Origin: Eledone cirrhosa
Taxonomy: Eukaryota
NCBI GenBank assembly: GCA_964016885.1
Contig: OZ024744.1
Coordinates: 45,508,001 to 45,572,000, forward strand
Length of the DNA: 64,000 nucleotides
Reading direction: 5' to 3'
The translations under genes were made by a program, and so were the position numbers. Positions 945 to 54,700 of the stretch are shown piece after piece. The notes beneath the pieces were generated by a model. It made no database searches. It had not been told where the DNA came from and saw nothing but the letters and a program-made list of their open reading frames with translations. Each line of letters opens with the position of its first letter. Within the stretch, counting starts at the first letter, position 1.

Positions 945-1280
945 TACAAGGCGTGTACATATTCTGTTTTTCATGCACACTACAAAACCACATTTGTTTC
1001 ACCTTTTGGTTCATACACTGAGCTATAGATATTTGTGTCCCGCTAACTCTTACACTACAGAATGTTTTCTCTTTGATCACGCATTTCACAAATCGCATCC
1101 TCAAAACAATGGCCTTCTTTTTTCACGTACACATTCACTCAATAGCTCGAGAATGCCTCGCTATTTTTTTACGACATGCATTCGCTCAAGTCATATGCTG
1201 TGGAGCAAACTGTTACTTTTAGGCAGCATGCTTACGGCCTTTAAGTTCACACATTACGGTTATCTTCACTGCCCAGTTAG
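945..1280 (+). repeat. Direct duplicate of the Gypsy 3' untranslated segment at ~3035-3370
   Basis: Near-identical sequence offset by 2090 bp (ORFs 973 and 3063 give almost the same peptide). Confidence 0.9.
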
Positions 1281-2718
1281 TTTATGCGTTCCGTACCAAA
1301 CCTGATCGACATTCACCGAGAGAACTCCGACACCTGGATTTTGTCTCCCAATATTCAACGGATATTCGGCATATCAAGGGATCAGACAACGTAGCAGCCG
1401 ATGCCCTGTCCCGAATCCAGCTGAACGCAATACATGTGCATTCAGGCATCGACCTTCAACAGATCGCAGCTGACCAAGAGACTGACGAAGAGTTTATCAA
1501 ACTCCGAGATTCGCCATCCCTCAAGTTTCAGCAAGTTCCCATTCCTTCTTCTCCGGGACAAATTTGGTGCGACCTTTCTACCGGTCATGAACGACCGTAC
1601 GAACCACAGATGCATCGTCGACAAGTTTTTCTGCTTTACACTGCTTGTCTCACCTGGGAATCCGGGCTACACAGAAACTCATCTCTGCTCGTTTTGTGTG
1701 GACTAACATTAACAAGGACGTGCGCGACTGGTCCAGGAGCTGCATTGCCTGCCAGAAAGCAAAAGTCCACAGACACATCAAAACTCCACTCGGCACATTC
1801 GCGCAACCTGATGCACGTTTTCATCATGTGCATATCGACATCGTCGGACCTCTACCACCATCACAGAACTACACACACTTGCTCACCTGCATAGATCGAT
1901 TTTCTCGTTGGCCTGAGGCTTTTCCCATAAATGATACCTCAGCGGAAACAGTCGCTAAAATTTTGATTTTACACTGGGTATCACGTTATGGCGCCCCAGC
2001 GAAGATAACAATGGACAGAGGACGCCAATTTGACTCCCACCTCTTCAGGGAACTGACTCGCCTGTTAGGATGTAAACACAATCGCACGACAGCTTATCAC
2101 CCGCAAGCTAATGGTCTCGTGGAAAGATTCCATCGCCAATTGAAAGCTGCAATAAAAGCATATCCAGACAAGACCCACTGGTTTGAATACCTACCACTCA
2201 TCCTTTTGGCTATTCGATCCTCCGTTAAGGAGGAATTCGGACACACACCTGCAGAATTAGTGTACGGCACCACCCTGGTTCTACCTGGTCAGATGGTTGC
2301 TCCCATCTCTCAGGATGTTCCAGACCCAGGATCATATGTACACCGTCTTCGACAATATATGTCTCATCTTGCTCCTGCAAGCACCCGTCAACAGAACACG
2401 GCCACACACGTACCTTCAGACATTGATGATTGGACACACGTTTTCGTTCGAAACGACACCATCTCAGCTCATCTTCGACCTCCATATTCTGGCCCTTGTC
2501 GTGTTCTAAAAAAATATCCGAAATATTTTATTCTCGATCTAGATGGTAAACAGAATTCTGTCAGCGTGGACAGATTAAAAAAAGCCATCATGGATACTGT
2601 TACAGTCTCTACACCAGAAACTCCAACAGATTGCTGTCCCAGCGAGCCACCTGTTTCATCTCCAGTCACGAGAAGTGGACGACGCGTCCATTGGCCGCAA
2701 AGTTGGCACAATATGTGA
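1281..2718 (+). pseudogene. Ty3/Gypsy pol remnant: RNase H C-terminus plus integrase, frameshifted near 1630
   Basis: RHLDFVSQYSTDIRHIKGSDNVAADALSR (RNase H end); [14 protein letters not shown] zinc motif; [23 protein letters not shown] (DDE core); PPYSGP GPY/F-like motif. Confidence 0.95.
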
Positions 2719-3580
2719 ATTACCGTTAACCTCAAGTGATTTTCTTAATCATTCTTCGTGCAAAACATTTCCATTTTTCTTGTGTTTACTATTTCCAGTT
2801 TCAAATACAATGAACTTTCTGCTTGAACAATTGCAATTTTTAGTGACCATGTGCTCATGTCACGAAGAACGTTATTTATTATGAACATTATTTATTACAA
2901 ACACTATTTAAGAACAAACATTGTGTATATCATTGTGTATAACATTTTTTTTTTCTTCTCTCTCTTGTTTTGCAAAATTTGTATTTTTCTTGTTCTGTAA
3001 CATTGATTGTGTAATTGCCATAATTTTTATATACATACAAGGCATTACATATTCTGTTTTTCATGCACGCTACAAAACCACATTTGTTTCACCTTTTGGT
3101 TCATACACTGAGCTATAGATATTTGTGTCCCGCTAACTCTTACACTACAGAATGTTTTCTCTTTGATCACGCATTTCACAAATCGCATCCTCAAAACACT
3201 GGCCTTCTTTTTTCACGTACACATTCACTCAATAGCTCGAGAATGCCTCGCTATTTTTTTACCACATGCATTCGTTCAAGTCATATGCTGTTGAGCAAAC
3301 TGTTACTTTTAGGCAGCATGCTTACGGCCATTCAGTTCACACATTACGGTTATCTTCACTGCCCAGTTAGACTTTTTGTCACGTAATTCACAAGCAGCTC
3401 AACCGAAATTGCAACAGGCTCATTCATCACGCCTGGATAAATCTGGTCAAAGTCATTTTATAGTTTATTTCTTTTTTCTCTTCCTGACACACACATCTTG
3501 CCATATCATCTCTACATCGACTCTGTCCTGTACTCGATGATCACAACATTTCACAACGTGCTGGACACTCCTGGGGCTAT

Positions 3581-4163
3581 TGTCATGACAAATGCACCAC
3601 TGGCCCATTCCTATACGATATTTCGCTCTTTTGTTGTACAAAAGAACTGGCTAAGGTACAGCCACCGGAAATAACAGCTGTGAAATATACAGCGCCATCT
3701 ACCTTTTAGCTAGCTACTCAACGTGAAACAAAAGAACCCTTAGAACCTACCAGAATTAGAACCTACTAGAATTAGAACCTACCAGAATAAACGCCTACAC
3801 ATCGACTAAACAACAAAGGATTGTTCCTGTATAAATAGAGTGGTTCCTAACACTTTCGCTAGTCGACTTTTGGCAGAGTCAGCTAGCGCATCGTTGTTCC
3901 TTTACTCTGCCACGCTTTGTCACTCACACACGCATTGCCTTGTACCCCGTATCGTCGCTTCATGTGAAAATAAATAGCTGATCGAATTTACATCTCGCCT
4001 TGCTTCGTCCTTTCAACTTGTGCTCTCGTCTGTCCATCCTCAACAGTTCTTTTAAGGGCTATCTTCATATCTGATCAGACCGTATGCGATACCAGTCCTT
4101 CTAAGGACTATTCTCGGGTCTGATCAGAAGTAGTGACTAGACTGACCAACCAGCATCGCTACA
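3581..4163 (+). mobile_element. Gypsy 3' LTR (~583 bp)
   Basis: Starts TGT after a short GGGG PPT-like stretch (CTGGGGCTAT) and ends ACA; TATAAA at ~3829 and AATAAA at ~3969; 16-bp TTAGAACCTACCAGAA repeats; second copy at 34076-34574. Confidence 0.75.
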
Positions 4164-4622
4164 AATCTAATAACTGATTCCCTGTATTTGTAATGTTATT
4201 TGTATATATGCATGTAGGTGTCCCCTCGCATTGTTTCAATTGAGCCAAAATCAACTGAAAAGGGTAAGTTATAATTTTACCATCATCTACTAAGTTATTT
4301 AGTAATTTATCCTTTCTCTCTATATATAAATATATGTATATATATATACATATTCGGGGGACAGAGGGAGTTTGGTCCACTTGTGTTTGGACTGGGTGTA
4401 TATATGTATATATCAAAGATAATGAATCTAATAACTGTTTCCTGTATTTGTAAATTTATTTGTATATATAAATGTAGGTTTACTATGATTTTGTTTATAT
4501 ATTCTAGGTGACCATATTACAGTGTCCCCTCGCATTGCTTCAATAGAGCCAAAATCAACTGGAAAGGGTAAGTTATAATTTGAACATCATCTAAGTTATT
4601 CAGTAATTTATCCTTTCTCTCT
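4164..4622 (+). repeat. Micro-exon cassette repeat, 2 units; intact exon A at 4508-4567
   Basis: TTCTAG|60 nt|GTAAGT encoding [19 protein letters not shown]; the first unit has an internal deletion. Confidence 0.85.
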
Positions 4623-4623
4623 A

Positions 4624-5537
4624 TCATCATCATCATCGTTTAACGTCCATCTTCCACGCGTGCATGGGTTTGGACGGGAGTTTTCCCACTTGAGGCAAGA
4701 GAGGTTGTCTTGCTCGCATATGACTGTCTGGCGTGTTGTCTACGGCTGGATGGCCTTCCGAATAACAACCGCGTTTACAGTGTGGACTGGGAGGTTTTTA
4801 CTGTGTTACCTACACGGCCACATTACAGCGTGGACTGTGTGTGTTTTTTTAACATGACACCTACACAACCTCATTTGTTTCGGACTGGATGTTGTGGTAC
4901 CAACATAACTTTACAGTGAAAGGGGTGGTGTGGATGGGGTGGGGGTAGTGGGACGGGGTTTATTTTTATTAGAGTGCCTACTGACTGTAGTAGGTTTCAC
5001 TTTGTACTTAGGCAAGGCGGGTCTTCTGTATTACTGTGTAGCGCCAAAGATCTCGGTCCAGTGACATTGTCTTGGAGAGGTGTGTGAGGTCGGAATTTAT
5101 CAGGTCGCCCCAGGTTTTTCTGGGTCTGCCTACTCCGTGGCTACCGTCTATTTTTATTGCCCTGCACCTTTTAATACAGCTCTGTCGTCTTTCATGCGCA
5201 TCACGTGACCTTACCAACGTAGACTTCTCTCGAGTAACATCTGATCCCTCTTATTTCTAATTTTTCCCTTCGTTCGTTTATGCTTTGCCGTTCACGTATA
5301 TTACTATAACACATCCAGTGGAGCATGCAAACTTCGTTCTTCTCCAGTCTGCATATATCCACTGCACACAATGCCCAGGTCTCACTGCCATGTAACATTG
5401 CTGTTCATATGCACGAATCATACAGCCTGCCTTTCATTTTAAAAGACAACCCTTTAGCGGCTAATAGTGGTATAAGCTCTCTGAACTTTTCCCATCCAGT
5501 TCTGACTCTAGCTACTGTACTTTCAGAGCACCCTCCA
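4624..5537 (-). mobile_element. RTE LINE family A, 3' fragment
   Basis: (CAT)n tail at left; MLHGSETWAL and GRPRKTW motifs on the minus strand. Confidence 0.92.
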
Positions 5538-6072
5538 CGAATATACAAATAACATTACAAAAACAGGAAACAGTTAATACATTCATTATCTCTGATATAT
5601 ATATTTATATACACCAGTTCCAAACACAAATGGACCAAACCGCCTCTATCGCTGGCATATATATATATATACATTATATATAATATTATAGATGTAGCGA
5701 GATCTAGGCAAATTGATGTCTATTGAAACGTACGTTAGAACCGAATAAATCTCTTTTACTGCATCTTTCTGTTCTTTTTAATTCTTTATATATATATACA
5801 TATATTTATATATAGAGAGAAAGGATAAATTACTGAATAACTTATTAGATGATGTTCAAATTATAACTTACCCTTTTCAGTTGATATTTTCTCTATTGAA
5901 GCAATGCAAGGGGACACTGTAATATGGTCACCTAGAATATATAAACAAAATCATAGTAAACCTACATGTATATATACAAATAAATTTACAAATACAGGAA
6001 ACAGTTATTAGATTCATTATCTCTGATATATATACTATGTCCAAACACATATGGACCAAACTCCCACTGCCA
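5538..6072 (-). repeat. Micro-exon cassette repeat; intact exon A at 5872-5931
   Basis: Reverse complement of 43490-44017; exon DHITVSPCIASIEKISTEK. Confidence 0.85.
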
Positions 6073-6077
6073 TTTAT

Positions 6078-6445
6078 ATCATCATCATCATCATCATTTT
6101 ACATCCGCTTTTCCCTGCTTGCAAGGGTAGTACGGGAACTGAATCTGGCTTGATTTCTACAGCTGGATGCCCTTCCTAACACCAACCTCATTTACAGTGA
6201 GTGCTGGGTGCTTTTCTGCCGTGGCACGTCCACGACCACTTTGCAGTGGAATGATAGGGACCCCAGTCCCTATCATCTCATTTCTACAGCTGAGTAAACT
6301 GGAGCAATGTGAAATAAAGTGTCTTGCTCAAGGAAACAACACATCACCCGGTCTGAGAATTGAACTCACAACCTTTCGATTGTAAGGCCACTAAGCCATG
6401 TGCCTAACCACTAAGCCATGTGCTCTAACCACTAAGCCATGTGCC
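6078..6445 (-). mobile_element. tRNA-derived SINE with RTE-derived tail; A-box region triplicated
   Basis: A box TGGCTTAGTGG (3 tandem copies, 6389-6445), B box GAGTTCAATTC, (GAT)n tail; same family as 39877-40221. Confidence 0.88.
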
Positions 6446-6469
6446 TCTATATATATATATTTATATATA

Positions 6470-7906
6470 TAGTGAAAGGATTCAGGACGCCAACTGCTTA
6501 GATCCGTAAATATACATTTACTACTAAATGTTCTCCAATCATGGCAACAGTCCCTATAAAGCAAATTTATTCTTACATACACACGCACAGAGATCGCACA
6601 CACAGAACCTCACACTCACACAAACAGGGCTCACACACACTCAAAAAAACATCACCGGAGAAACACACCCAAACAGGTACACAATGAATTAATATACAAC
6701 CCAATATACCTATATGTATACATCAAATACACATAATACCAACATCACTTCACTTATATATGTACACACTATTTTATTCATTAGGTCCCCCATACACATT
6801 ACATAAACTTCCCTGTATACAAAAATATAATATAACGTCAATTTGATATTAATGTTGAAACAAGTGTAATAGTTTTCTGTACTCACTGGTAGGAATGGGC
6901 TTGAAATACAACTTACTTTCTTTTGATCCACCTCTTATGTGTGTGCCTGAGTCAGAGACAAAGATCTCTACAGGAGTCACACCTGGAAAAAAAATATACA
7001 GAAGAAAAGAATAATAAAAGCTAGAAGGTTTTCTTGAGAAGAGTTTGTTGTCAAGTTGAAGAAAGGGTAGAATGAGTTGTCATTTATTTAATCAACTAGA
7101 TCAAATTATATGGTTTGTTCTCTCAATGACATGCTTACTTATCCCACAAATATAAAACTTCCAAAAGGAGTAAAGTGTGGCTAGTCATATGTGGGATGTC
7201 TAGAATTATGAGAGAAATATTCTACAGTTTCCCACTGGTCCTGAAGATCAGATATATATAGTGATTTAACCAAATATTTAGGGTACTGGCTGATATAGTG
7301 GAGAAGAGGATGCAGCATATGAACAATGAAGGGTGACAAGAAATTGTGAAGAATTGTAGGATAAAGTTTTGATAAAGAAGAGAATACTGATCTCTGAAAT
7401 AATTCAATCTTACTCAATGAATCTAGTGTAACATTTATCTTCTTATTTGAACCAAATGTAATGTCATTCTTTCTCAGCTATCTCTGATAATGCCCTAAAC
7501 GAGTGTAGCTATACTTTTGTCATCATTACAAGGTCTTTGAGGAAGTCAATAAAATGTTTATTCTGGATTATGTTATGGGGTTTGTAATATAGACTTTGAT
7601 AGTGTTGACTGAATTAAGTAGTTATAAATTTACTATTGAAAACCTAAATAAAATACTGAATAACTTATTACATGATGTTTACATTATAACTTACTCTTTT
7701 GAGTAGTTTCAGGCTTCATTGCAGCACTGGGAGGGTACACAGTAATATGGTCACCTAGAATATATAAACAAAATCATAGTAAACCTACATGTATATATAC
7801 AAAAAACATTACAAATACAGCGAATCAGTTATTAGATTCATTATCTCTGATATATACATATATACACCAGGTACAAACACAACTGGACCAAACTCCCTGT
7901 GTCCCT

Positions 7907-7908
<2 letters not shown>
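6470..7908 (-). repeat. Long (~1.4 kb) cassette with exon B (7695-7754) and exon C (6917-6982)
   Basis: Both exons are AG/GT-flanked and phase 1-1: DHITVYPPSAAMKPETTQK and VTPVEIFVSDSGTHIRGGSKE; paralogous to 31560-33150 and 51708-53200. Confidence 0.85.
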
Positions 7909-7946
<38 letters not shown>

Positions 7947-8042
7947 AATGAAGTAATTCCGTTGGAAAAGTCTAGGAAAAAAGAGTGCTCTATGTAGGTA
8001 ACAGAGCTTAATAGTTATGTAATAAACAACATAAGGCAATTA

Positions 8043-8102
8043 TTCCATTTACCAGTGGTTTCTTAAAAGCAAAAGATTTTGCTTTCAATCCTCAGAATGA
8101 AA
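8043..8102 (-). ncRNA. Type I hammerhead ribozyme motif
   Basis: Reverse complement of 23801-23860: CTGAGGA, stem II, GAAA, ACCACTGGT stem III, GUA site. Confidence 0.75.
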
Positions 8103-10325
8103 AAATCCTGGTGTTTATTGAATTTGGATTTTAAAAACAAAAATGCAATCTATATGAAAGTGAGGCCGGAGAAGGAAGAAGGAAAGGAAAAATAAAATAA
8201 AACTACACATGCAAACACACACACAAAAACATGCACACACACACACAAAAGCATACATACACACACATATATATATATATAATTTTAACCTGCCTTATGA
8301 TCATGAAGTATTAACTAACATCCCTATGTCTTTCTTTTCTATCTTAGAGAAAAATTTCCCTCCTACTAATAAATACCATGGTATTTTTAATAAAAATGTA
8401 ATTAAACTATCATTCTCTACCACCCCTAATATTAGTTCTCATTTAGCTAGCACTAACAATAAGAAAATTAGGGACAGCTACTCCTCTTTGCGTACTACTA
8501 GTCTTGATAGATCCATTAATGCCTTACCACCTGAGCAGACCTTATCTTATAATAACCCTAGGAGTGATGCATCACTCATTCAGCCAGTCAATAGCACCCG
8601 GAGGTGTAACTGTAGAGTAAGTATTAACTGCCCTTTAAATGGTCACTGCCTCTCTAGGAACATTGTTTATGCTTGTGAAGTTAAGACTAATTCTTCTAAT
8701 AGAACATATATAGGTTCCACATCTAATACTTTTAAAACTAGGTTTAATTCTCATATCTCTAATTTTAAGCATGTTAAGTTCTTCTTTAGCACACCATATC
8801 TGGGATCTTAAAGGGGGTGGTATGCCATATAGCCTTAATTGGCGTATAGTAGCACGCTCTAATAACCTATCAACACACACTAAATTCTGTAATCTCTGTA
8901 TCCTAGAGACCCACTCTATAATTTTCTCTAGGGAAGTTTTGCTTAATAGAAAGTCAGATATTTTCTTCCTGCCCTCATGCCATTTCTAATTCTTTCTTCT
9001 ATTATAGACCTAAAAGTTCTGGTAGTTTAAATCGTATCCATTAGCTGCTATATTTCCTTATCTTTTTTGTTTAGGTTCATTTTGATTACCATCATCTTTA
9101 TTATTTATTTTTTACAGCTTTTCGATTTTAGTTTCCATAGTCTTTTGGCTACCATACCCTATTTATCTTCTTAAGCATTATTATAGTTTCACTACTAACA
9201 CCTTATGAGTTTATATCTTATTAAATACTTTGTTTGGAGTCTCATTCAACTAATGTACCTCCTCCTCTACACACTTAATATCCACCCCTTCTATTATACT
9301 ATATATAAATTTCACCTTTATGCTCCTTTTATGATATTATATAATATATTGATTTTTCTTTTATGCTCCTTCCTATCCTCCATAACCTCTCTTCTTTCTG
9401 TTCCCATTGGTCTACCATAGTTCTATTTAGAGTCCTTTTATTTGATAACGTCATTCGACTGAACGGAGCATATTTTACTCTATTCTTGATAATTTTATTG
9501 AATTATCTTAAACTTATACGTTTTTGATGACTTAAACTCTAGCCAATTTTGAAGTGACTAAATATGTATTTTAAATACTTTTAATATTAATTAGTTTTAA
9601 AAGGTTTTCTAGTCAATTCTCCGGTTTACATTTCTATTTTTTTCTTTTACTTAACCGCTTGTGACACCTAAGTAAATATACTTGTTTTTGTTTTTCGATC
9701 TTCGGTTTATTTTATTTATTTTTTTACTACCACACGCTGTTTGTCTGACCATGTAATTTCATTAATATATGTCTGTATGTCAACCACGTAAATATATATA
9801 TTAAGCATTTCCTTAGACTTTTGATATTAACGTTGTCATATCATATCATTTTTATGTAATCGTATTATAGATTTTAATATGTCTGTTATTTGAAGTACTG
9901 TACTGTTTTATTTTGTAATATTTTGTGATATTTTGGTAATATTTATGCCAATGTAAAATGACTTGACCTCCGTGTATTTGTTGCAATGGTATAGATATGT
10001 TTTCAACACAATTTTTTCAACACTATTTAGTTCTATATGATTTTTTCTTACCCTGTGTAAAACTTTATACTATTTGTTAACATTGAATTATATATATGAT
10101 GTAATTTTGTATATCTTTTGATGACAATATATTATAATATTGTTATTATAATGTTATTATAATGTTTTTATATTGTTTATGCACACTGACAGGGAATTAT
10201 ATATTATATTTTATTTTTATTTTTATCTTTATTATATTATACTGTAAACAATAGATATATAGATATATATTTAAATACTTAATAAGTGTTAGTTTGTGTT
10301 TGTACTAATGTGTATATGTATTGAG

Positions 10326-35682: not shown

Positions 35683-38600
35683 GCCAGGGACAGAGGGAGT
35701 TTGGTCCATTTGTGTTTGGACCGGTATATATATGTATATATCAGAGATAATGAATATAATAACTGTTTCCTGTATTTGTAATGTTATGTGTATATATACA
35801 TGTAGGTTTACTATGATTTTGTTTATATATTCTAGGTGACCATCTTACAGTGTCCCCTCGCAATGCTTCAATGGAGCAAAAATCAACTAAAAAGGGTAAG
35901 TTATAATTTGAGCATCATCTAATAAGTTATTCAGTAATTTATCCTTTCTCTCTATATATAAATATATGTATATATATATACATATTCGGGGGACAGAGGG
36001 AGTTTGGTCCACTTGTGTTTGGACCGGGTGTATATATGTATATATCAAAGATAATGAATCTAATAACTGTTTCCTGTATTTGTAAATTTATTTGTATATA
36101 TAAATGTAGGTTTACTATGATTTTGTTTATATATTCTAGGTGACCATATTACAGTGTCCCCTCGCATTGCTTCAATAGAGAAAAAATCAACTAAAAAGGG
36201 TAAGTTATAATTTGAACATCATCTAATAAGTTATTCAGTAATTTATCCTTTCCCTCTATATATAAATATATGTACCAGATAGAAAAATGCGTACAGCAAA
36301 AAAAGTAATATTGTTGGAATATAAACCTTTAAAAATACAGGACAAGAAACTAAAATAAAACTTTAAAAGAATAGGACAAGAAACTAAGATAAAACTTTAA
36401 AAGAATAGGACAAGAAACTAAGATAAAACTTTAAAGAATTGGACAAGAAATAAAAAATTTTACAATAATATTAGTGGCAAAATTTTTATTGGTAAAAAAT
36501 CGAGTTCCACATTCATAGGCTCTGGGTTCCACATTCAGAGGTCGTCGTCAGACCGGGGGATCATTTGATCCTGGTTTGAACACCAATTGGGCCATAACCA
36601 TACCCCTATTTCATCATTCGGCGACACGCCTCATGTGTCATGCATAATGTGAATGGACCCATGGGCCCATGAGCACAGATCTTGACCAACCCGTCCATCT
36701 TCTCCTTGCATCTTGTCCTTGAGTTCAAGTCCGGCAGTCCAGATGAATGCGTGCCACAGCTTTCTGGTACAGGAAGGGGGAGCAGGAGGACTGAAGGGAT
36801 GACGGGATAGAGGGAGGGAGGACCGGTGGTTGAGGGAGGTGCCGTAGTTGGTGGTCAGAGTCGACATCTTGTCCCGGTCGTCTTCTCCATCTTCGTCTGG
36901 TGTTGCGGGACCAGAAGTGCATTCTTGGAGGAGACCTGCAGCTGCATCGGCCAATTCTTCTTGCAATGGTCATTCTGACGGAGCAGAACTGCTCAGCCAA
37001 CCAACCCCAACCAGAACCAACCGCTCAGGGGCAACGCACAATGAGAGCATGACAATTATTATGCACTAATCAAGAAGATACTGGGGCATAGCACAGGAAA
37101 CGAATAAAAAAATGTTGCCACTAATATTATTGTAAAATTTTTTATTTCTTGTCCAATTCTTTAAAGTTTTATCTTAGTTTCTTGTCCTATTCTTTTAAAG
37201 TTTTGTCTTAGTTTCTTGTCCTATTCTTTTAAAGTTTTATTTTAGTTTCTTGTCCTGTATTTTTAAAGGTTTATATTCCAACAATATTACTTTTTTTTGC
37301 TGTACGCATTTTTCTATCTGGTCTACTATTTTTTAAGGCAATGCAAGCAACAACTATCTAATAATTAAATGATCATAGTGAATTACTGACAAGTGATTGA
37401 CATTTTAAAGTTCTTTTGAGTATAATTGCAATCTAGTTGAGGCAACTGGCTTAATGACAAAGCTAGTAAATCATGAATGCATTTGAGATGATTAGTGCAT
37501 AATAGTGAATTGGTGAAACTTGTGCATTTCAATGGTGTTACAACAATAGATGTAAGTTATATAGTAGTAATACTTTATCATTTTAATTTTTTAGAATGGA
37601 CAAAAACCCATGCAAAGAAATGACTTTGACTGCAGTAATTCTCTCCAATTTACTTACAAAGCAAAACGTGGTCAAATACCTTATCATCTCTGATAAAATG
37701 CCCATTGAATCACTGAAAATCGGATGCATGGAATTCCTCATAAAATGCACCTATGAATCGGAAGCCATCACATATATCAATGGATATAGGGAGTTGTTCA
37801 CACTGGAAGACCATCACTTCATTTGTGACTTCATCAGTTATCTCCATGATTATCTCAGACACCCAATGCCATTGATGAGAGCTGATCCAATGTGTGAGCA
37901 TGTAACTAATCTTATAGAAGTTGTTATCGACCACCTGGCTTTTAGTGACATTTGACTGATAATGATGTATTTTTAAAAAGTATGTGTACATTCTTGTTAC
38001 TATTTTAAGGCAATGCAAGCAACAACTATTTAATAAAATTTAAATTTAAAAATGACCATTGTGCATTACTAGTATGATGACATTTTATTAAGTCACAAAA
38101 TTAGTCAGTCAGCCATAGAACAAGGATCAGGTGGCAAAAACATTGGCAAAAATTTGTGTCAATGTAAGATTTCCAACATTGTTCAAAGGAATCATATCTG
38201 AAGTCAGATTTGTCAAATTTTGACCAATTTTCAATGTTGTGAAGATTGGGCAAGTTCAATTTTTGAATCATTTCTTTCATGCAGTAATTAAACTTTTCCA
38301 AACGAGAATTTCTCTTGCCCAAGTCATTTTTATTTTCAATTACACTTTGTGGACGTGGAATGACACCACTGTAGAAAATGGGTGTACAGTGGTGCTTTTC
38401 CGCTATTTTCTGTAGCCTTGCAAAGAGACTCTTCCCCTGTTTTTCCGGTTTTGTGCCTCGAATGGGCACTTTGTCCTTAATTTACAAATAAATGATTAAT
38501 AAAAAATACTTGGGCAAAAATTATTGTATTACTTTGCACAGCTTTGTAGTGGCAACGGTGCGACGAGGATTCAGATCATTAGAGCCGACATGAACCACCA

Positions 38601-40500
38601 ATACTTTCACAAAAGGACAACAGATAACAATGTTGGCGATTAACATTACCCAGGTATACAAAATATCTAAGTATTTTTGTTGGTATGATAAGTAAATACA
38701 TTTGAATTAATATTTTTATACCTTCTGGTCATTCGATTTCGCCACATTTCTAATTATGGATTTGTAAAAACTGGCATGAATGTGAATTTAATCAGTCCAA
38801 TTGCCCGATTTTAGTGAAAAGTTTTGATTCGAAATGGAAATACTCCATTTCCGTGCCATGGAAAAAATGAATAAGCCGATCAAAAAGCCGCGAAACATCA
38901 TTTTTAATTAAGCGAAATTAGTGGATGCAAATCTCAGAAAATATTGTACACTATTCGCACCTATCGCACTATGCGCACCTATCGGTACAAAAATATAGCG
39001 CACTATTCGCACCTATCGGTACAAAAATATAGCGCACTATTCGCACCTATCGGTACAAAAAATCACACGACTGTTAATAATACTAGAAGTGCAAACTATC
39101 TGTTGAATACCTGGTATATGAAGAGCAACCGATACGATCGGTCGGCGATCGGTCTTGAAGAAGAATGAAGAATGAAGTGAAATTTTGGTCTGGTTGTTGT
39201 CATCGGTGTTTCGCAGAGATGCCGGCACGAACAAAGGTGTCAGTGACACAAAGTTGTCCGCTTGAACAAAGGTGTCGGTCCGACAAAGGTGTCAGTCAGA
39301 CAGTGTCACAGTCGGTGCTACAAAGCAATCGATGCGATTAAAAAAGATTTAACTCACATGTTTACCTATATTTTCCCAAACTATTGATAGATTGGTACAA
39401 AAAATAGCTTTGATAATAAACATAAATTTTTAACGAAGTATTTAAAAAGCATTTTAGCAGTGAAAAGTGAAGTAATGTTGCACACTGACGCAAGTAGGGC
39501 CGTTCAGAAATGACGTAGTCAATTAGGAGGATGGGATTCGGCGATTTGACTACATTTGACTAACGTAATCACAATCACAAGAGTTCCGCCGAAAAAAATT
39601 CGTCATTTCTGGATTACCTCCCCTAGCGTCACGCTTACTACTCACTCACTTGAACACAAGATTTGTCAGCAAACTTTGATTATAAACTTTTTCCCACTGG
39701 ACCAAATTTCTAGATTTTTAAGCCAAAAGATGCGTAATGATCTACTGTTCAGGCTCATATAAGTTTTATCTCAGTTAAATAAAGTAGAGCCGCGCTGTAC
39801 TGTCGTAAGCAGACGATTGCCAACGAAAACACGACCACAACAATATTACTAAACGGACTACCGTCCGTTTAGGATATGGAGGCACATGGCTTAGTGTTTA
39901 GAGAATTCGCCTTGCAATCGAACGGTTGAGAGTTCAATTCTCAGACCGGGTGATGTGTTGTTTCCTTGAGCAAGTCACTTTATTTCACATTGCTCCAGTT
40001 TACTCACCTGTACAAATGAGATGATAGGGACGGCGGTCCCTAGCATTCCACTGCAAAGTGGTCGTGGAGGTGCCATGGCATAAAAGCACCCAGCACTCAC
40101 TGTAAAAGGGGTTGGTGTTAGGAAGGGCATCCAGCTGAAGAAATCAAGCCAGAATCAGTTCCCGTCCCACCCTTGCAAGCAGGGAAAAAGCGGACGTAAA
40201 ATGAAATGATGAAATGATGATATATATATTCCGGTGACAGAGGGAGTTTGGTCCATTTATATTTGGACCTGGTGTATATATGTATATATCAGAGATAATG
40301 AATCTAATAACTGTTTCCTGTATTTGTAAATTTATTTGTATATATACATGTAGGTTTACTATGATTTTGTTTATATATTCTAGGTGACCATATTACAGTG
40401 TCCCCTCGCATTGCTTCAATAGAGAAAATATCAACTGAAAAGAGTAAGTTATAATTTAAACATCATCTAATAAGTTATTCAGTAATTTATCCTTTCTCTC

Positions 40501-40540
<40 letters not shown>

Positions 40541-43500
40541 AATTCACCTCAGGGACGAGAATGTGAGCACTCCTCATTCTTTCGGCCGCGGATGGCTAAC
40601 ATAACCCCATCTCCCCCCCCCGCTCCCCACCGCTCCCACCCTCCAAACGTAATCCAAAACTTCAGAGTTGGTACCATGAATGTAGGCACCTTAAAGGGTC
40701 GCTCTAACGAGGTTGTAGAAATGCTCGAACGTAAGGAGGTCGATGTTTGTTGTATTCAAGAGACCAGGTTGAGGGGTGGGTCTGCTAGATACATTGAGGG
40801 TAAAAAACGATGCTATAAGCTTTTCTGGGTGGGAAATGACAATGGTCTGGGTGGAGTAGGAATCATGGTAGCAGAAAGTGGGCAGATAAGATAATAGATG
40901 TAAATAGAGTGAACGACAGAATAATTAAAATAAGACTTGTCCTCAATAGAACTACGGTGATAGTAATATCTGCGTACGCACCCCAATCTGGACTGCCCGG
41001 CACTATAAAAGACAGATTCTATGAGACACTGATGCTCACTACCTCCCAAATAACCGACAGTGACTATATAATTATTGCAGGCGACCTAAATGGTCACGTT
41101 GGACAACATTGTGACGGCTACGACAAAATCCATGGAGGCTATGGGTTTGGTACTAGAAATGAGGAAGGCTCAAGAATCCTGGAATTCTGTAACGCAAATA
41201 ACAAACTATCTGTAACACTAACTTCAAAAAACGTGACAATCACCTGATCACTTATAGATCGGGGGAACACACAAGCCAGGTAGATTATATCCTTACCAGA
41301 AGACGTGACAGACTGTCTGTTGTAAACACTAAATCCCTCCCCTATGAAGAATGCACCTCCCAACATAGACTGATAATTAGCGACCTAATAGTCAGGACGA
41401 GACGTACTAGACAACAGAAGAGGACTATCCTCAGGAGAAAAATATGGAAGTTAAAGGACCCCACAGCCAGTAATAAATTTAAAAGCATACTACTTGATGC
41501 TTTCGACAGTAAGGAAGAGCAATTAGAGTCGTACAATATAGAGGAGCAGTGGGAATTCCTGAAAGCAAACCTGCTGATGGCGGCAGACGAAGTCTGTGGC
41601 TGGAGCAGGCCTGTAGGCAGGAGGACAGTAACATGGTGGTGGAACAGTAAGGTGGAGGGGTCAATTAAGGCCAAAAAGCAGGCTTGGAAAGTATGGCGGG
41701 ATGGGGGAAGTAGAGAAGACTATCAAGTGGCCAGGAGGGAAGCTAGGAGACAAGTGTACTTCGCAAGAAGAGAAGCAGAGGAAAGAAAGTTCAAGCATGT
41801 TCTACAACGCGAGGACCAAAAACGTGAGGTGTTCAGGATTGCTAGGCAATGTGTCAATGAAAACCGTGATATTGTCGGGGAGAAGTGTGTACTAAATGAT
41901 GACGGCGTACTTGCCATCACCGACGCTGATAAGAAGGTAGCTTGGAAGTGTCACTATGAAAGGCTACTAAATGAGGAGAATAAATGGGAGAAAGACAGTC
42001 TCCCCCACATCGACTCAATAGAGGGACCAGCAGTGTTAGTCGAGGGTAGTATAATAAGTAAGGCAATCAAGGATATGAAGACGGGTAAGGCAGCTGGGCC
42101 TTCGGAAATAGTTGCTGAGATGCTGAAGGCATCTGGCACGGTGGGACACACCATGGTCACCCGGATAGTTAACCAAGTCATACAGAATGGGGTTGTTCCG
42201 AAGGACTGGCGTAGCAGCATCATTGTTAACTGTTATAAGGGTAAAGGAGATGCCCTAGATAGGAGTAACTATAGAGGCATTAAATTAATCGACCAGGTCA
42301 TGAAGGTCACGGAAAAAGTAATAGCGCAACTAATCAGAGAGAGAATTGACCTCGATGAAATGCAGTTCGGGTTTGTGTCAGGCAAAAGTACCACAGACGC
42401 TCTTTTCATTGTACGACAACTACAGGAGCAGTACCTAGCTAAAAGTAAACCCCTATACTTAGCTTTTGTCGACTTGGAGAAAGCCTTCGACAGAGTCCCC
42501 CGTTCCATTATCTGGTGGGCTCTTAGAAAACTAGGTGTTGACGAATGGCTTGTGAGAGATATAGAAGCCATGTATAAAGAAACAGTCAGCAAGGTTAGAA
42601 TTAACAACGAATATAGTGAAGAGTTTAGCGTAAAAGTTGGCGTCCATCAGGGCTCTGTTCTAAGACCCCTACTATTTATTATTGCCCTTCAGGCTATAAC
42701 AGAGGAGTTCAAGACCGGCTGCCCAAGGGAACTCCTATATGCAGATGACCTAACACTCATAGCTGAATCAAAGGCCGAGCTAGAGAAGAAATTCCAAACA
42801 TGGAAGCACAGCCTAGAATCAAAAGGCCTTAAAATTAATCTGGCTAAGACCAAAGTTCTAGTTTGTAGGAAAGAAAATAAGGCGGCGGTCGCTTCCGGGA
42901 AGTGGCCATGCTCAGTGTGTAGGAAAGGCGTAGGTAGAAACTCCATTTTGTGTCCGAAATGCAAAGTATGTGTGCATAAAAGATGTAGTGGGATCACAGG
43001 TAAGCTAACTAAGAACATAGATTTCACATGTGGCCGGTGCTCTGGTGCAATAAGTAGCAGCAAGTGCCCACAAAATACTAGCTCTTTCAACTGTGCAGAG
43101 GGTTCTATAGAAATAGTGGACAGCTTCCGTTACCTGGGTGACAAAATCATATATATATGCCAGGGACAGAGGGAGTTTGGTCCATATGTGTTTCGACCTG
43201 GTGTATATATGTCTATATCAGCGATAATGAATGTAATAACTGTTTCCTGTATTTGTAATGTTATTTGTATATATACATGTAGGTTTACTGTGATTTTGTT
43301 TATATATTCTAGGTGACCATATTACACAGTCCCCTCGCATTGCTTCAATGGAGCCAAAATCAACTAAAAAGGGTAAGTTATAATTTGAACATCATCTAAT
43401 AAGTTATTCAGTAATTTATCCTTTCTCTCTACATATAAATATATGTATATATATATATATATATTCCGGGGACAGAGGGAGTTTGGTCCATTTCTGTTTG

Positions 43501-46500: not shown

Positions 46501-47552
46501 CAATGGAGCCAAAATCAACTAAAAAGGGTAAGTTATAATTTGAACATCATCTAATAAGTTATTCAGTAATTTATCCTTTCTCTCTATATATAAATATATG
46601 TATATGGAGGCACATGGCTTAGTGGTTAGAGCATTAGCCTTGAAATCGAAAGGTTGTGAGTTCAATTTTTAGACCGGATGATGTGTTGTTTCTTTGAGCA
46701 AGTCACTTTATTTCACATTGCTCCAGTTTACTCAGCTGTAGAAATGAGATGATAGGGACTGCGGTCCCTATCATTCCACTGCAAAGTGGTCGTGGAGGTG
46801 CCACAGCATAAAAGCACCCAGCACTCACTGTAAATGGGGTTGGTGTTAGGAAGGGTATCCAGCTATAGAAATCATACCAGATTCAGTTCCCGTCCCACCC
46901 TTGCAAGCAGGGAAAAAGCGTACGTAAAATGAAATGATGATGATGAAATGATGATATATATATATATATATTCCGGTGACAGAGGGAGTTTGGTCCATTT
47001 ATGTTTGGACCTGGTGTATATATGTATATATCAGAAATATTGAATCTAATAACTGTTTCCTGTATTTGTAAATTTATTTGTATATATACATGTAGGTTTA
47101 CTATGATTTTGTTTATATATTCTAGGTGACCATATTACAGTGTCCCCTCGCATTGCTTCAATGGAGCCAAAATCAACTGAACAGGGTAAGTTATAATTTG
47201 AACATCATCTAATAAGTTATTCAGTAATTTACCCTTTCTCTCTATATATAAATATATGTTTATATATATATATACATATATATGCCAGGGATAGAGGGGG
47301 TTTGGTCCATTTGTGTTTGGACCTGGTGTATATATATATATCAGTGATAATGAATGTAATAACTGTTTCCTGTATTTGTAATGTTATTTGTATATATACA
47401 TGTAGGTTTACTATGATTTTGTTTATATATTCTAGGTGACCATATTACAGTGTCCCCTCGCATTGCTTCAATGGAGCCAAAAGCAACTAAAAATGGTAAG
47501 TTATAATTTGAACATCATCTAATAAGTTATTCAGAAATTTATCCTTTCTCTC

Positions 47553-51707: not shown

Positions 51708-54700
51708 AGGGACACAGGGAGTTTGGTCCATATGTGTTTGCACCTCGTGTATATATGTATATATCAGAGATAATGAATCTAATAACTGATTCCCTGTATT
51801 TGTAATGTTTTTTGTATATATACATGTAGGTTTACTATGATTTTGTTTATATTTTCTAGGTGACCATATTACCGTGTACTCTCCCAGTGCTGCAATGAAG
51901 CCCGAAACTACTCAAAAGAGTAAGTTATAATTTAAACATCATGTAATAAGTTATTCAGTAACTTATTTAGGTTTTCAACAGTAAATTTATAACTACTTAA
52001 TTCAGTCAACAATATTACAATTCACAATTTCTTGTCACTCTTCATTATTCATACGCTGCATCCTCTTCTCCACTACATCTGCCAGTACCCTAAATATTTG
52101 GTTAAACCACTATATATATCTGATCTTCAGCACCAGTGGGAAACTAGAATATTTCTCTCATAATTCTAGACATCCTACATATGACTAGCCACACTTTACT
52201 CCTTTTGGAAGTTGTATATTTGTGGGGTAAGTAAGCATGTCATTGAGAGAACAAACCGTATAATTTGATCTAGTTGATTAAATAAATGACAACTCATTCT
52301 ACCCTTTCTTCAACTTGACAACAAACTCTTCTCAAGAAAGCCTTCTAGCTTTTATTATTCTTTTCTTCTGTATATTTTTTTCCAGGTGTGACTCCTGTAG
52401 AGATCTTTGTCTCTGAATCAGGCACACACAAAAGAGGTGGGTCAAAAGAAAGTAAGTTGTATTTCAAACCCATTCCTACCAGTTAGTACAGAAAACTATT
52501 ACACGCGTTTCAACATTAATATCCAATTGACGTTATATTGTATATTTGTATACATGGAAGTTTATGTAATGTGTATGGTGGACCTAATGAATAAAATAGT
52601 GTGTACATATATAAGTGAAGTGATGTTGGTATTATGTGTATGTTGATGTATACATATAGGTATATTGGGTTGTATATTAATTCATTGTGTACCTGTTTGG
52701 GTGTGTTTCACCGGTGATGCTTTTTTTAGTGTGTGTGAGCCCTGTTTGTGTTTGTGTGAGTGTGAGGTTCTGTGCGTGTGTATGTAAGAATAAATTTGCT
52801 TTATTAGGACTGATGCCATGATTATAGAAAATTTAGTAGTAAATGTATATTTACGGATCTAAGTAGTTGGCGTCCTGAATCCTTTCACTATATATAAATA
52901 TATAAATATAAATGGCAGTGGCAGTGGGAGTTTGGTCCTTATATGTTTGGACATGGTGTATATATGTATATATCAGAGATAATGAATCTAATAACTGTTT
53001 CCTGCATTTCTCATGTTATTTGTATATATACATGTAGGTTTACAATGATTTTATTTATATATTCTAGGTGACCATATTACAGTGTCCCCTCGCATTGCTT
53101 CAATCAAGCCAAAATCAACTAAAAAGGGTAATTTATAATTTGAACATCATCTAATAAGTTATTCAGTAATTTATCCTTTCTCTATATATATAAATATATG
53201 TAGAAGGCCTTTGATAGGGTACCCCGATCTGTCATCTGGTGGTCCCTAAGGAAGCTAGGTGTTGAGGAATGGCTTGTGAGGACAGTGCAAACTTTGTACA
53301 GAGGTACTCTCAGTAAAGTCAGGGTAGGAATGGAGTTTAGTGAGGAATTCCAGATACAAGTAGGAGTACATCAGGGTTCGGTCCTCAGCCCGCTCTTGTT
53401 CATTATAGTCCTCCAAGCCATAACAGAGGAGTTTAAGACTGGCTGTCCATGGGAACTTCTCTATGCTGACGATCTGGCTCTTATAGCAGAATCAGTAGAG
53501 GAGCTAGAGAATAAATTCCGGCTATGGAAACAGCAGTTGGAAGCAAGAGGACTGAGAGTAAATCTAGCTAAGACAAAAGTGTTGATGAGTAGAAAAGAGG
53601 ACAAAACCCTGATTTTGTCAGGGAAATGGCCATGTTCGATATGCAGAAAAGGAACTGGCATAAATTCTATAAAATGCACACAATGCAGGTCCTGGGTACA
53701 CAAGAGATGTAGCGGGATAGCAGGCAAACTAACAGGTAGGGAGAAATATGTATGCAGTAGATGTACAGGGAAATTAGACAGTAGAAGTCGCACTGATAGA
53801 CACATTTTTCAAATGCGAGAGGGCGCTATAGAAGCGGTGGATAGCTTCCGGTACCTAGGAGATCAGATTAGCATGGGAGGAGGGTGTTCCGAGGCCATAG
53901 TATCTAGAATAAGGACGGGTTGGAAGAAGTTTAGGGAGCTGCTTCCTCTGTTGACGAAGAAGGGTTTCTCCCTGCGTACGAAAGGCCGGTTGTATGATGC
54001 CTGTGTGAGGAGCGCGATGCTGCATGGTAGTCAGACATGGGCAGCAACCGCAGAGGATATGCGACGGCTGGAGAGAAATGAGGCAAGCATGCTCCGTTGG
54101 ATGTGCAGTGTAAATGTGCGTGAACGACCCAGCATAAATGTGTTGAGAGAGAAACTGTGTCTGAGAGGGATAGAATGTAGTGTACGGGAGAGGAGACTGA
54201 GGTGGTATGGACATGTGATGCGCATGGAGGATGACCGATGGGTGAAGAAGTGCCAGGAAATGCCAGTTGAAGGAAGACGTGGTAGAGGTAGACCACGAAA
54301 AACATGGGCGGAGGTGGTGAGAACAGACCTCAGATCATTGAAGCTCACGGCGGAGATGACGAGGCACCGTGACGAGTGGAGAGATGCTGTGCTGAATAAG
54401 ACCCGTCCCACCCTTGCAAGCAGGGAAAAGCGGACGTAAAATGATGATGATGATGAGGATGATGATATATATATATATATATATATATATGCCAGGGACA
54501 GAGGGCGTTTGGTCCAGTTGTGTTTGGACCTGAAGCATATATGTATATATCAGAGATAATGAATCTAATAACTGTTTCCTGCATTTATATTGTTATTTGA
54601 TATATACATGTAGGTTTACTATGATTTTCATCATCATCATCATCATCGTTTAACGTCCATTTTCCACGCTAGCATGGGTCTGGACAGGAATTGTCCCACT

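Follow-up and report, generated by a model that had tools for sequence, protein, structure and literature searches.

The 3600-bp insert examined here lies on the minus strand at 36275-39874 of a 64,000-nucleotide stretch of Eledone cirrhosa DNA (assembly GCA_964016885.1, contig OZ024744.1, positions 45,508,001 to 45,572,000; hereafter the window, to which all coordinates refer unless a locus is named), and it belonged to a high-copy family (family A) of Helitron-like elements (HLEs) with two sister families in the same genome (B and C). The insert is almost certainly an element of the HLE2 branch, and we moderately favor its interpretation as a non-autonomous deletion derivative of a 12.6-kb HLE2-type element encoding a Rep-helicase transposase (RepHel), likely mobilized in trans and using a terminal fold-back as its stop. 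As judged from sequence comparison, the feature that appears new relative to the literature searched is this fold-back of 190 to 220 bp, kept at the 3' terminus in all three families around unrelated loops. No description of such a long terminal fold-back was found in the part of the open literature on HLEs that was searched, which included PMC11417382, PMC5148889, PMC4067079, PMC4778049, PMC13282606, and PMC13085455 (each represented here and below by part of its text), Repbase, Dfam, and subscription journals lying outside the search.

Insertion site, ends, and copy number

The features of the insert and its target were as follows:
36275..39874, minus strand: whole non-autonomous element, 3600 bp, 5'-TC...CTGG-3', between A and T, with no duplication
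46594..46617, plus strand: paralogous empty site, 24-nt cassette/SINE junction, uninterrupted
24570..24593, minus strand: inverted paralogous empty site, one mismatch, at the first base of the 24-nt junction
39849..39872, minus strand: 5'-terminal hairpin, 10-bp stem plus 4-nt loop, beginning 2 nt inside the TC end
39838..39850, minus strand: 13-bp inverted repeat, 5' subterminal, 25 nt inside the TC end
36304..36316, minus strand: 13-bp inverted repeat, 3' subterminal, 30 nt inside the CTGG end
36275..36487, minus strand: outer fold-back arm, the 3'-terminal 213 bp, with about four 34-bp tandem units
36488..37107, no strand assigned: fold-back loop, 620 bp, 52% GC, about 664 bp in most copies, origin not found
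37108..37322, plus strand: inner fold-back arm, repeating the 3' end in inverted orientation and containing the partner base of the target T

Excision of 36275-39874 gave a 24-nt junction between a 310-bp local cassette and a repeat resembling a short interspersed element (SINE). The first-pass annotation of this DNA had defined the insert from empty paralogous sites, and these were recovered: the junction was intact at 46594-46617, and an inverted version of it with a single mismatch stood at about 24570-24593. Both TA dinucleotides bordering the insert pre-existed in the empty site, so that the absence of a target site duplication (TSD) was upheld, as was the minus-strand reading A|TC...CTGG|T. 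Four raw reads skipped exactly the insert; their possible source is the paralogous empty sites, and polymorphism is therefore not demonstrated by these reads.

The segment proved to be high-copy with constant ends, rather than single-copy or variable in its ends or TSDs. Searching the 3.0-Gb host genome with exact patterns gave 357 matches for the TC end (a pattern of 31 specified letters), 428 for the outer CTGG end, and 405 for the inner arm, with 0 matches to reversed-pattern controls; corrected for a divergence of about 1%, these counts suggest some 500 family A copies with one inner arm each. The genome-wide tabulation of boundaries that the annotation had proposed was made on the first 60 of 100 listed TC ends: the left junction was A|TC in 58/60 copies, and the 52 right ends that could be mapped read CTGG|T (49), CTGA|T (2), or otherwise (1), that is, CTRR|T in 51/52; two of the remaining eight copies still terminated in CTGG|T after deletion. 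TA was present at both sides in 31/52 copies against 30.1 expected from AT-rich targets, which is the chance level, and odd-length duplications were few among these 52 (3 bp in three copies, 5 bp in one, 9 bp in none). Pre-insertion sites were reconstructed in 53 cases; for 21 of them the fetched DNA contained a spanning match, ungapped in 19 of the 21. The insert is thus, as the annotation had proposed, a Helitron-like, rolling-circle element: its TC and CTRR termini are constant, it targets A^T, and it leaves no TSD.

Family A is young: nineteen 3.6-kb copies differed on average by 0.95% from their majority sequence, and the window copy by 0.7%. Contigs under two other organism labels contained family A with a 1.47-kb deletion junction and few differences, and no RNA dataset was found among the listed holders of family A sequence. 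Two different deletion types (L182 and L221) occupied an identical target position in a host repeat, the empty form of which was present elsewhere.

Parent element and transposase

Longer relatives encoding Rep and Pif1 helicase domains, for which the annotation had advised a search, were found. Searching the genome for DUF6570 gave 54 matches, and the 29 loci fetched comprised 16 family A loci with ends, one family A fragment without ends, two loci of family B, eight of family C, and two of none of these. The 16 family A loci had the element's own ends around RepHel remains, a both-ended family A copy measured 12.6 kb, and the parent open reading frame (ORF) ran from the TC end to the CTRR end. 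Its Pfam domains were DUF6570, Helitron_like_N (PF14214), PIF1 (PF05970), UvrD_C_2, and UCH, with HUH and tyrosine (Y..Y) motifs present; the AP endonuclease domain PF03372 was found neither in the full 2230-aa ORF nor in the family A and B pieces. The best PDB match was Helraiser (E 9e-31). In an unrooted tree of the Rep region (30 rows, with long branches meeting at the base), the family A, B, and C proteins formed one branch (100/100) among DUF6570/UCH proteins, separate from the five HLE1 proteins of the same genome (100/100) and from endonuclease-bearing oyster proteins, placing the parent in the HLE2 (Helitron2/Helentron) branch and not with classic Helitron1.

RepHel DNA identity among families A, B, and C was about 86% and 64-70%. 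Family B had ORFs of 1904 and 507 aa, and family C had uninterrupted ORFs of 2230 aa (five copies), 2245 aa (two), and 2134 aa (one) that were 98.6-99.6% identical; at least five family C copies with the 2230-aa transposase were 99.1-99.6% identical and had exact ends. Since its arms were only 66-69% alike to those of family A, family C is an unlikely helper for family A.

Among the 21 outside RepHel relatives returned, an equal domain order was seen in Rhodnius and in metagenomes; the closest (P0001, 45% identity) was labelled as a Gammaproteobacteria metagenome-assembled genome, and it likely represents eukaryotic DNA in that bin. Ten PF14214 loci (of 150 listed) were considered as canonical HLE1 partners and rejected, having TC...hairpin-CTAG ends unrelated to those of the insert. 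Canonical Helitrons were also abundant (3704 PF14214 candidates), with clustered near-identical copies about 100 kb apart on C19, C20, and C27.

A terminal fold-back conserved in three families

The annotation had described a strong hairpin at the TC end, a CTGG end without a good one, and a 215-bp inverted repeat of which the CTGG end forms one arm, and all three held. The hairpin at 39849-39872 had a perfect 10-bp stem and a 4-nt loop (z = -4.5, 0/200 shuffles as stable), the last 60 nt at the CTGG end folded no better than shuffled sequence (z = -1.1, 26/200 shuffles as stable), and the inverted repeat 36274-36487 / 37108-37322 spanned 215 bp at 98.6% identity. A perfect 13-bp subterminal inverted repeat (36304-36316 / 39838-39850) had been overlooked.

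The window also held a family C copy, with these features:
17273..22911, plus strand: family C non-autonomous copy, bounded by A|TC and CTAG|T and having a long hairpin (z -8.1) at the 5' end
21958-22168 / 22700-22911, plus strand: fold-back arms of this copy

Families A, B, and C shared the same layout at both ends: (i) A|TC was followed at once by a strong hairpin and, at like positions, by a short subterminal repeat (13 bp in A and B, 10 bp in C); (ii) a small 3' hairpin was absent from all three families (A, z -1.1; C, z +0.3); and (iii) an inner inverted copy of the terminal 190-220 bp was present, its stem reaching the terminus and pairing the target T. The 5' hairpin of family B contained a compensatory pair change, and reads confirmed both changed letters of the hairpin, at 39855 and 39866; the 4-nt hairpin loop was inverted in 2 of the 100 TC ends listed. 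Arm identity was 98-99% within a family, 90-91% between A and B, and 66-69% to C, and the loops (620-665 bp in A, 739 bp in B, 532 bp in C) were mutually unrelated. We regard it as probable that the fold-back is under selection.

The loop of the window copy lacked 44 bp between 8-bp direct repeats (36678-36685). This same deletion recurred in one 3.6-kb and two 2.35-kb copies (L247, L248, and L249, two of them on one chromosome), reflecting either a deletion that arose repeatedly or an exchange among subfamilies. All of the loop's top 40 genomic matches were near full length and were taken as element copies, and the ORFs of the family B loop had no Pfam match. The gene-fragment capture invoked by the annotation was not borne out, no internal ORF or loop being assignable to a host gene. 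Short family-C-like non-autonomous elements (L119:2990-4110 and L105) had a like fold-back with a much shorter loop.

Deletion derivatives and damaged copies

Seven deletion types were found at two or more loci, and both arms were retained in 7/7; four of the seven broke 140-235 bp outside the inner arm, although no more than about 270 bp remained on their TC side. Genome-wide searches with three armless junctions found each of them in a single copy (3/3), and armless copies with exact ends are read as post-insertion deletions, though some may have transposed once. Loop orientation was identical in 47/47 copies and inverted in one long copy elsewhere. A routinely flip-flopping loop was rejected on this constancy, and the rarity of flips (0/47, one elsewhere) indicates that hairpin resolution of the type known from adeno-associated virus (AAV) is not routine. 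Shared changes between arms were not in excess (see below), so that the two arms, once inserted, are free to diverge, and only source elements keep them matched.

Solo outer arms (L261, L262, L263, and L269) of 165-200 bp had an exact CTGG|T and no other element sequence, two of them starting nearly at one base. Two candidates for a stand-alone arm-loop-arm module were both ordinary copies with a point change (0/2). A 1.4-kb palindromic element (L252, G000:C3:18764409-18765808) had two inverted TC-hairpin ends and no CTGG end.

Polarity and a proposed mechanism

To our knowledge, the start and stop of copying have not been tested in HLE2-branch elements, the mechanistic work consulted being on the HLE1 element Helraiser. 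A T followed both cuts (A^T and G^T) only on the ORF-sense strand. Moreover, a composite with two TC ends, half of a RepHel, and one 3' region with its CTGG end was found at two loci (L170; L159/L160) with the same inner junction and different outer flanks, which indicates that an internal TC hairpin does not halt copying. From these two observations we infer a start at TC and a stop at CTRR, and copying probably begins at the TC end. Partial TC-end duplications were seen in other copies (L156). HLE1 and HLE2 targets are both reported to have T after the cut (PMC11417382), and the Helraiser transposase is described as nicking A^TC, requiring the 5' end, and stopping at a hairpin 11 nt before CTAG (PMC4778049).

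In the mechanism that we propose, a RepHel of the parent type likely moves the window copy in trans. It would nick the hairpin-bearing TC end and unwind the strand 5' to 3'; the fold-back would zip up behind the helicase and be complete at the terminus, and stop and cut at CTGG would take place once the last 213 bases pair with the inner mirror copy. That termination is the job of the fold-back is, in our estimate, an even call.

Several observations weigh against this interpretation. The stem pairs through the cut site, which differs from the Helraiser geometry of a hairpin 11 nt upstream and a single-stranded cut (PMC4778049). A head-to-tail (circle) joint was listed in none of four runs of contigs or restriction-site-associated DNA (RAD) reads, material that is ill suited to the purpose and in which two joints were undisplayed, and no intact family A ORF was found among the 17 loci examined. 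Exact termini with an absent or partial inner arm were seen in 4/52 family A copies and in more copies of other samples, and a damaged or missing inner arm accompanied an intact ORF in 1/8 family C copies; the singleton status of armless junctions is weak evidence, because most copies never amplify. Breakpoints fell within the fold-back in 13/60 copies, marking a deletion-prone region. Truncations removed the CTGG end in 6/60 copies and the TC side in 8 of 20 selected CTGG ends (one of these loci was unjudged owing to a run of N); being about equally frequent at both ends, they do not inform polarity, and the numbers of TC and CTGG ends did not inform it either. Correction between arms within a copy was not evident either, with 6 shared changes against 3.5 by permutation (p 0.11, 47/52 copies usable).

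Alternative explanations

An opposite polarity has to be weighed, in which the insert would be a Helentron/DINE-1-type element on the window plus strand whose ORF is inverted: the CCAG end would be where copying begins, the small hairpin would be the terminator, and the fold-back would be an enlarged 5' inverted repeat that helps to open or mark the origin. The plus-strand layout resembles that described for DINE-1 and Helentrons (PMC4067079), with a subterminal inverted repeat inside the 5' inverted repeat and a later one followed by the terminal hairpin; ORF orientation relative to the ends is reported to flip between FoHeli3 and FoHeli4/5 (PMC5148889), the enzyme is of HLE2 type, and the small hairpin is maintained by compensatory change. 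We hold it unlikely, however, since reading on the plus strand would put the cuts at A^C and A^T, or at N^A both times, rather than before T, since TC and CTRR lie on the ORF strand in three families, and since the two-TC composite at two loci would demand repeated bypass of the inner hairpin. In a self-priming explanation, the free 3' end at CTRR, at the base of a perfect duplex, would prime the second strand in the manner of parvovirus and AAV hairpins, giving a double-stranded intermediate. The geometry suits it, the 3' base being paired and the remainder of the element forming a 5' overhang, and it would account for arm identity within each family. With hairpin resolution it predicts both loop orientations, against 47/47 alike and one long copy inverted, and mirrored mutations within copies, which were not in excess (a finding that does not touch priming without resolution); we consider self-priming quite improbable.

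The inner arm could also be a neutral leftover from an old self-insertion in inverted orientation, or from a template switch, homogenized by occasional gene conversion in master copies. Self-insertion has been proposed for FoHeli composites (PMC5148889), the one loop inversion shows that the arms recombine, and armless copies with exact ends exist. A relic would hardly be expected to persist in three families whose arms have diverged to 66-69%, with replaced loops and a register exact to the terminal base, nor to be retained by all seven multi-copy deletion types in a region so often broken, and we rate this explanation as very unlikely. As for a 1.05-kb cut-and-paste element with terminal inverted repeats (a MITE or Tc1/mariner-like element with TA duplication) beside another repeat, or ends made by rearrangement, the 215-bp inverted repeat does look like a terminal one, and TA flanks both ends in the 31 of 52 copies mentioned above. 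The inner arm, however, always continues into the same element sequence (405 exact cases), making the second arm internal; TA|TA occurs at chance, empty sites are without duplication, and long copies encode RepHel, which leaves this explanation with next to no likelihood.

Other internal and neighboring features

The remaining features of the insert were as follows:
37322..37364, no strand assigned: T-rich motif just past the inner arm, recognizable in families A, B, and C, with a second copy at 37994-38036
37587..37955, plus strand: open frame of 122 aa, on the strand opposite the parent transposase, found in 150 or more copies
38757..38758, minus strand: deletion junction, about 9.0 kb of the 12.6-kb parent absent (about 1155-10138, nearly the whole RepHel gene)
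38938..39063, no strand assigned: short tandem repeat (34 bp) within the 5' region

No homologue of the 122-aa ORF was found among longer proteins; it had only Atlas matches below 0.9 and no family, and the ten window ORFs searched had no Pfam match except a weak one (E 0.025). A copy without the fold-back (L024:1-1500) lay in an intron and had its end about 40 bp beyond the T-rich motif's second copy; the exons of the gene holding it presumably resemble SARA/ZFYVE9.

The 310-bp target cassette occurred at 22 places in the window, from 4341 to 61462 on both strands and 88-97% alike; no fetched locus contained it unless that locus overlapped or adjoined the window. A 60-nt stretch with splice-like signals on either side was present in each unit, and the cassette may be a local repeat or a much-duplicated exon. 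Retroelement remains in the window (1591-2715, 41202-43313, and 53204-54436) comprised one ORF for an integrase plus two for reverse transcriptase that have a PHD finger.

Significance

Families A, B, and C, one of which is still intact and very young, may represent an animal HLE2 lineage with Helitron1-type cut sites, in which a kilobase fold-back with an exchangeable loop replaces the small 3' stop hairpin; this would be a termination or priming device not described for Helitrons, and we give this broader picture about equal odds of being right or wrong. If it is true, the loop would be a fixed slot for captured DNA. With the natural 2230-aa transposases of family C, both polarity and the role of the fold-back can be tested, no reconstruction being needed. 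It is also seen from this lineage that, in animals, end structure is uncoupled from enzyme clade. For annotation, a tool that looks for a 3' hairpin or T^T ends would overlook the element or cut it wrongly, and its fold-back invites mislabelling as a MITE. Each of the approximately 500 family A copies adds a 200-bp perfect inverted repeat to the genome, in a region often deleted.

Comparison with known systems

The annotation had suggested an atypical, perhaps undescribed rolling-circle subfamily. An atypical lineage is retained, whereas the 5' hairpin has precedent in HLE2-reverse elements (FoHeli3-5) and in proto-Helentron, and it is these two whose layout appears closest, likened by a 5' hairpin outside the 13-bp subterminal repeat, no 3' hairpin, and A^T.

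Proto-Helentron of Phytophthora infestans and the insert shared (i) an HLE2-branch RepHel with DUF6570 and no endonuclease and (ii) a CTAG-type 3' end, A^T insertion, no TSD, subterminal repeats of about 12 nt, and a 5' stem-loop (PMC4067079, PMC11417382). Proto-Helentron differs in beginning with TT, in having its stem-loop 3.6 kb from the left repeat, in carrying SET and TIR genes, and in its oomycete host, and the consulted part of PMC4067079 mentions no long terminal fold-back; the likeness is one of description. HLE2-reverse elements (FoHeli3/4/5 of Fusarium oxysporum) are 9-11 kb long and have a hairpin only at the 5' end, where it lies outside an inverted repeat of 13-16 bp, while their 3' repeat is 20-40 bp from the end (PMC5148889); unlike the insert, they have TGCCT...CTCCTGT ends and no established target preference, they are fungal, and no long fold-back is mentioned in the consulted part of that paper.

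DUF6570 is a reported marker of HLE2, with UCH in subgroups c/d (PMC11417382), and the HELIANO HLE2 subgroups c/d resemble the parent in combining DUF6570 and UCH with RepHel, a likeness by domains. HLE2 elements in general are described with T^T insertion and a 3' stem-loop (PMC11417382), whereas A^T insertion and a hairpin upstream of the ORF were found here.

Canonical HLE1 Helitrons, exemplified by Helraiser, share 5'-TC, CTRR-3', A^T, the lack of a TSD, HUH and Pif1, and an ORF running from TC to CTRR, but they have their own short hairpin about 11 nt before CTRR, no subterminal repeats, and a RepHel without DUF6570 in the available description (PMC4778049). The genome's own HLE1 families showed this hairpin-before-CTRR layout with ends unrelated to the insert. 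Lacking a 3' hairpin and belonging to another enzyme branch, the insert is not an HLE1 member. Helentron/DINE-1 (HINE) elements share subterminal repeats, a palindrome at one terminus and an inverted repeat at the other, tandem repeats, and many deletion derivatives (PMC4067079). Helentrons differ in having an endonuclease, TT insertion, and a short inverted repeat, against 190-220 bp around a 530-740-bp loop here (PMC4067079). With no endonuclease and an A^T target, the insert is not a strict-sense Helentron.

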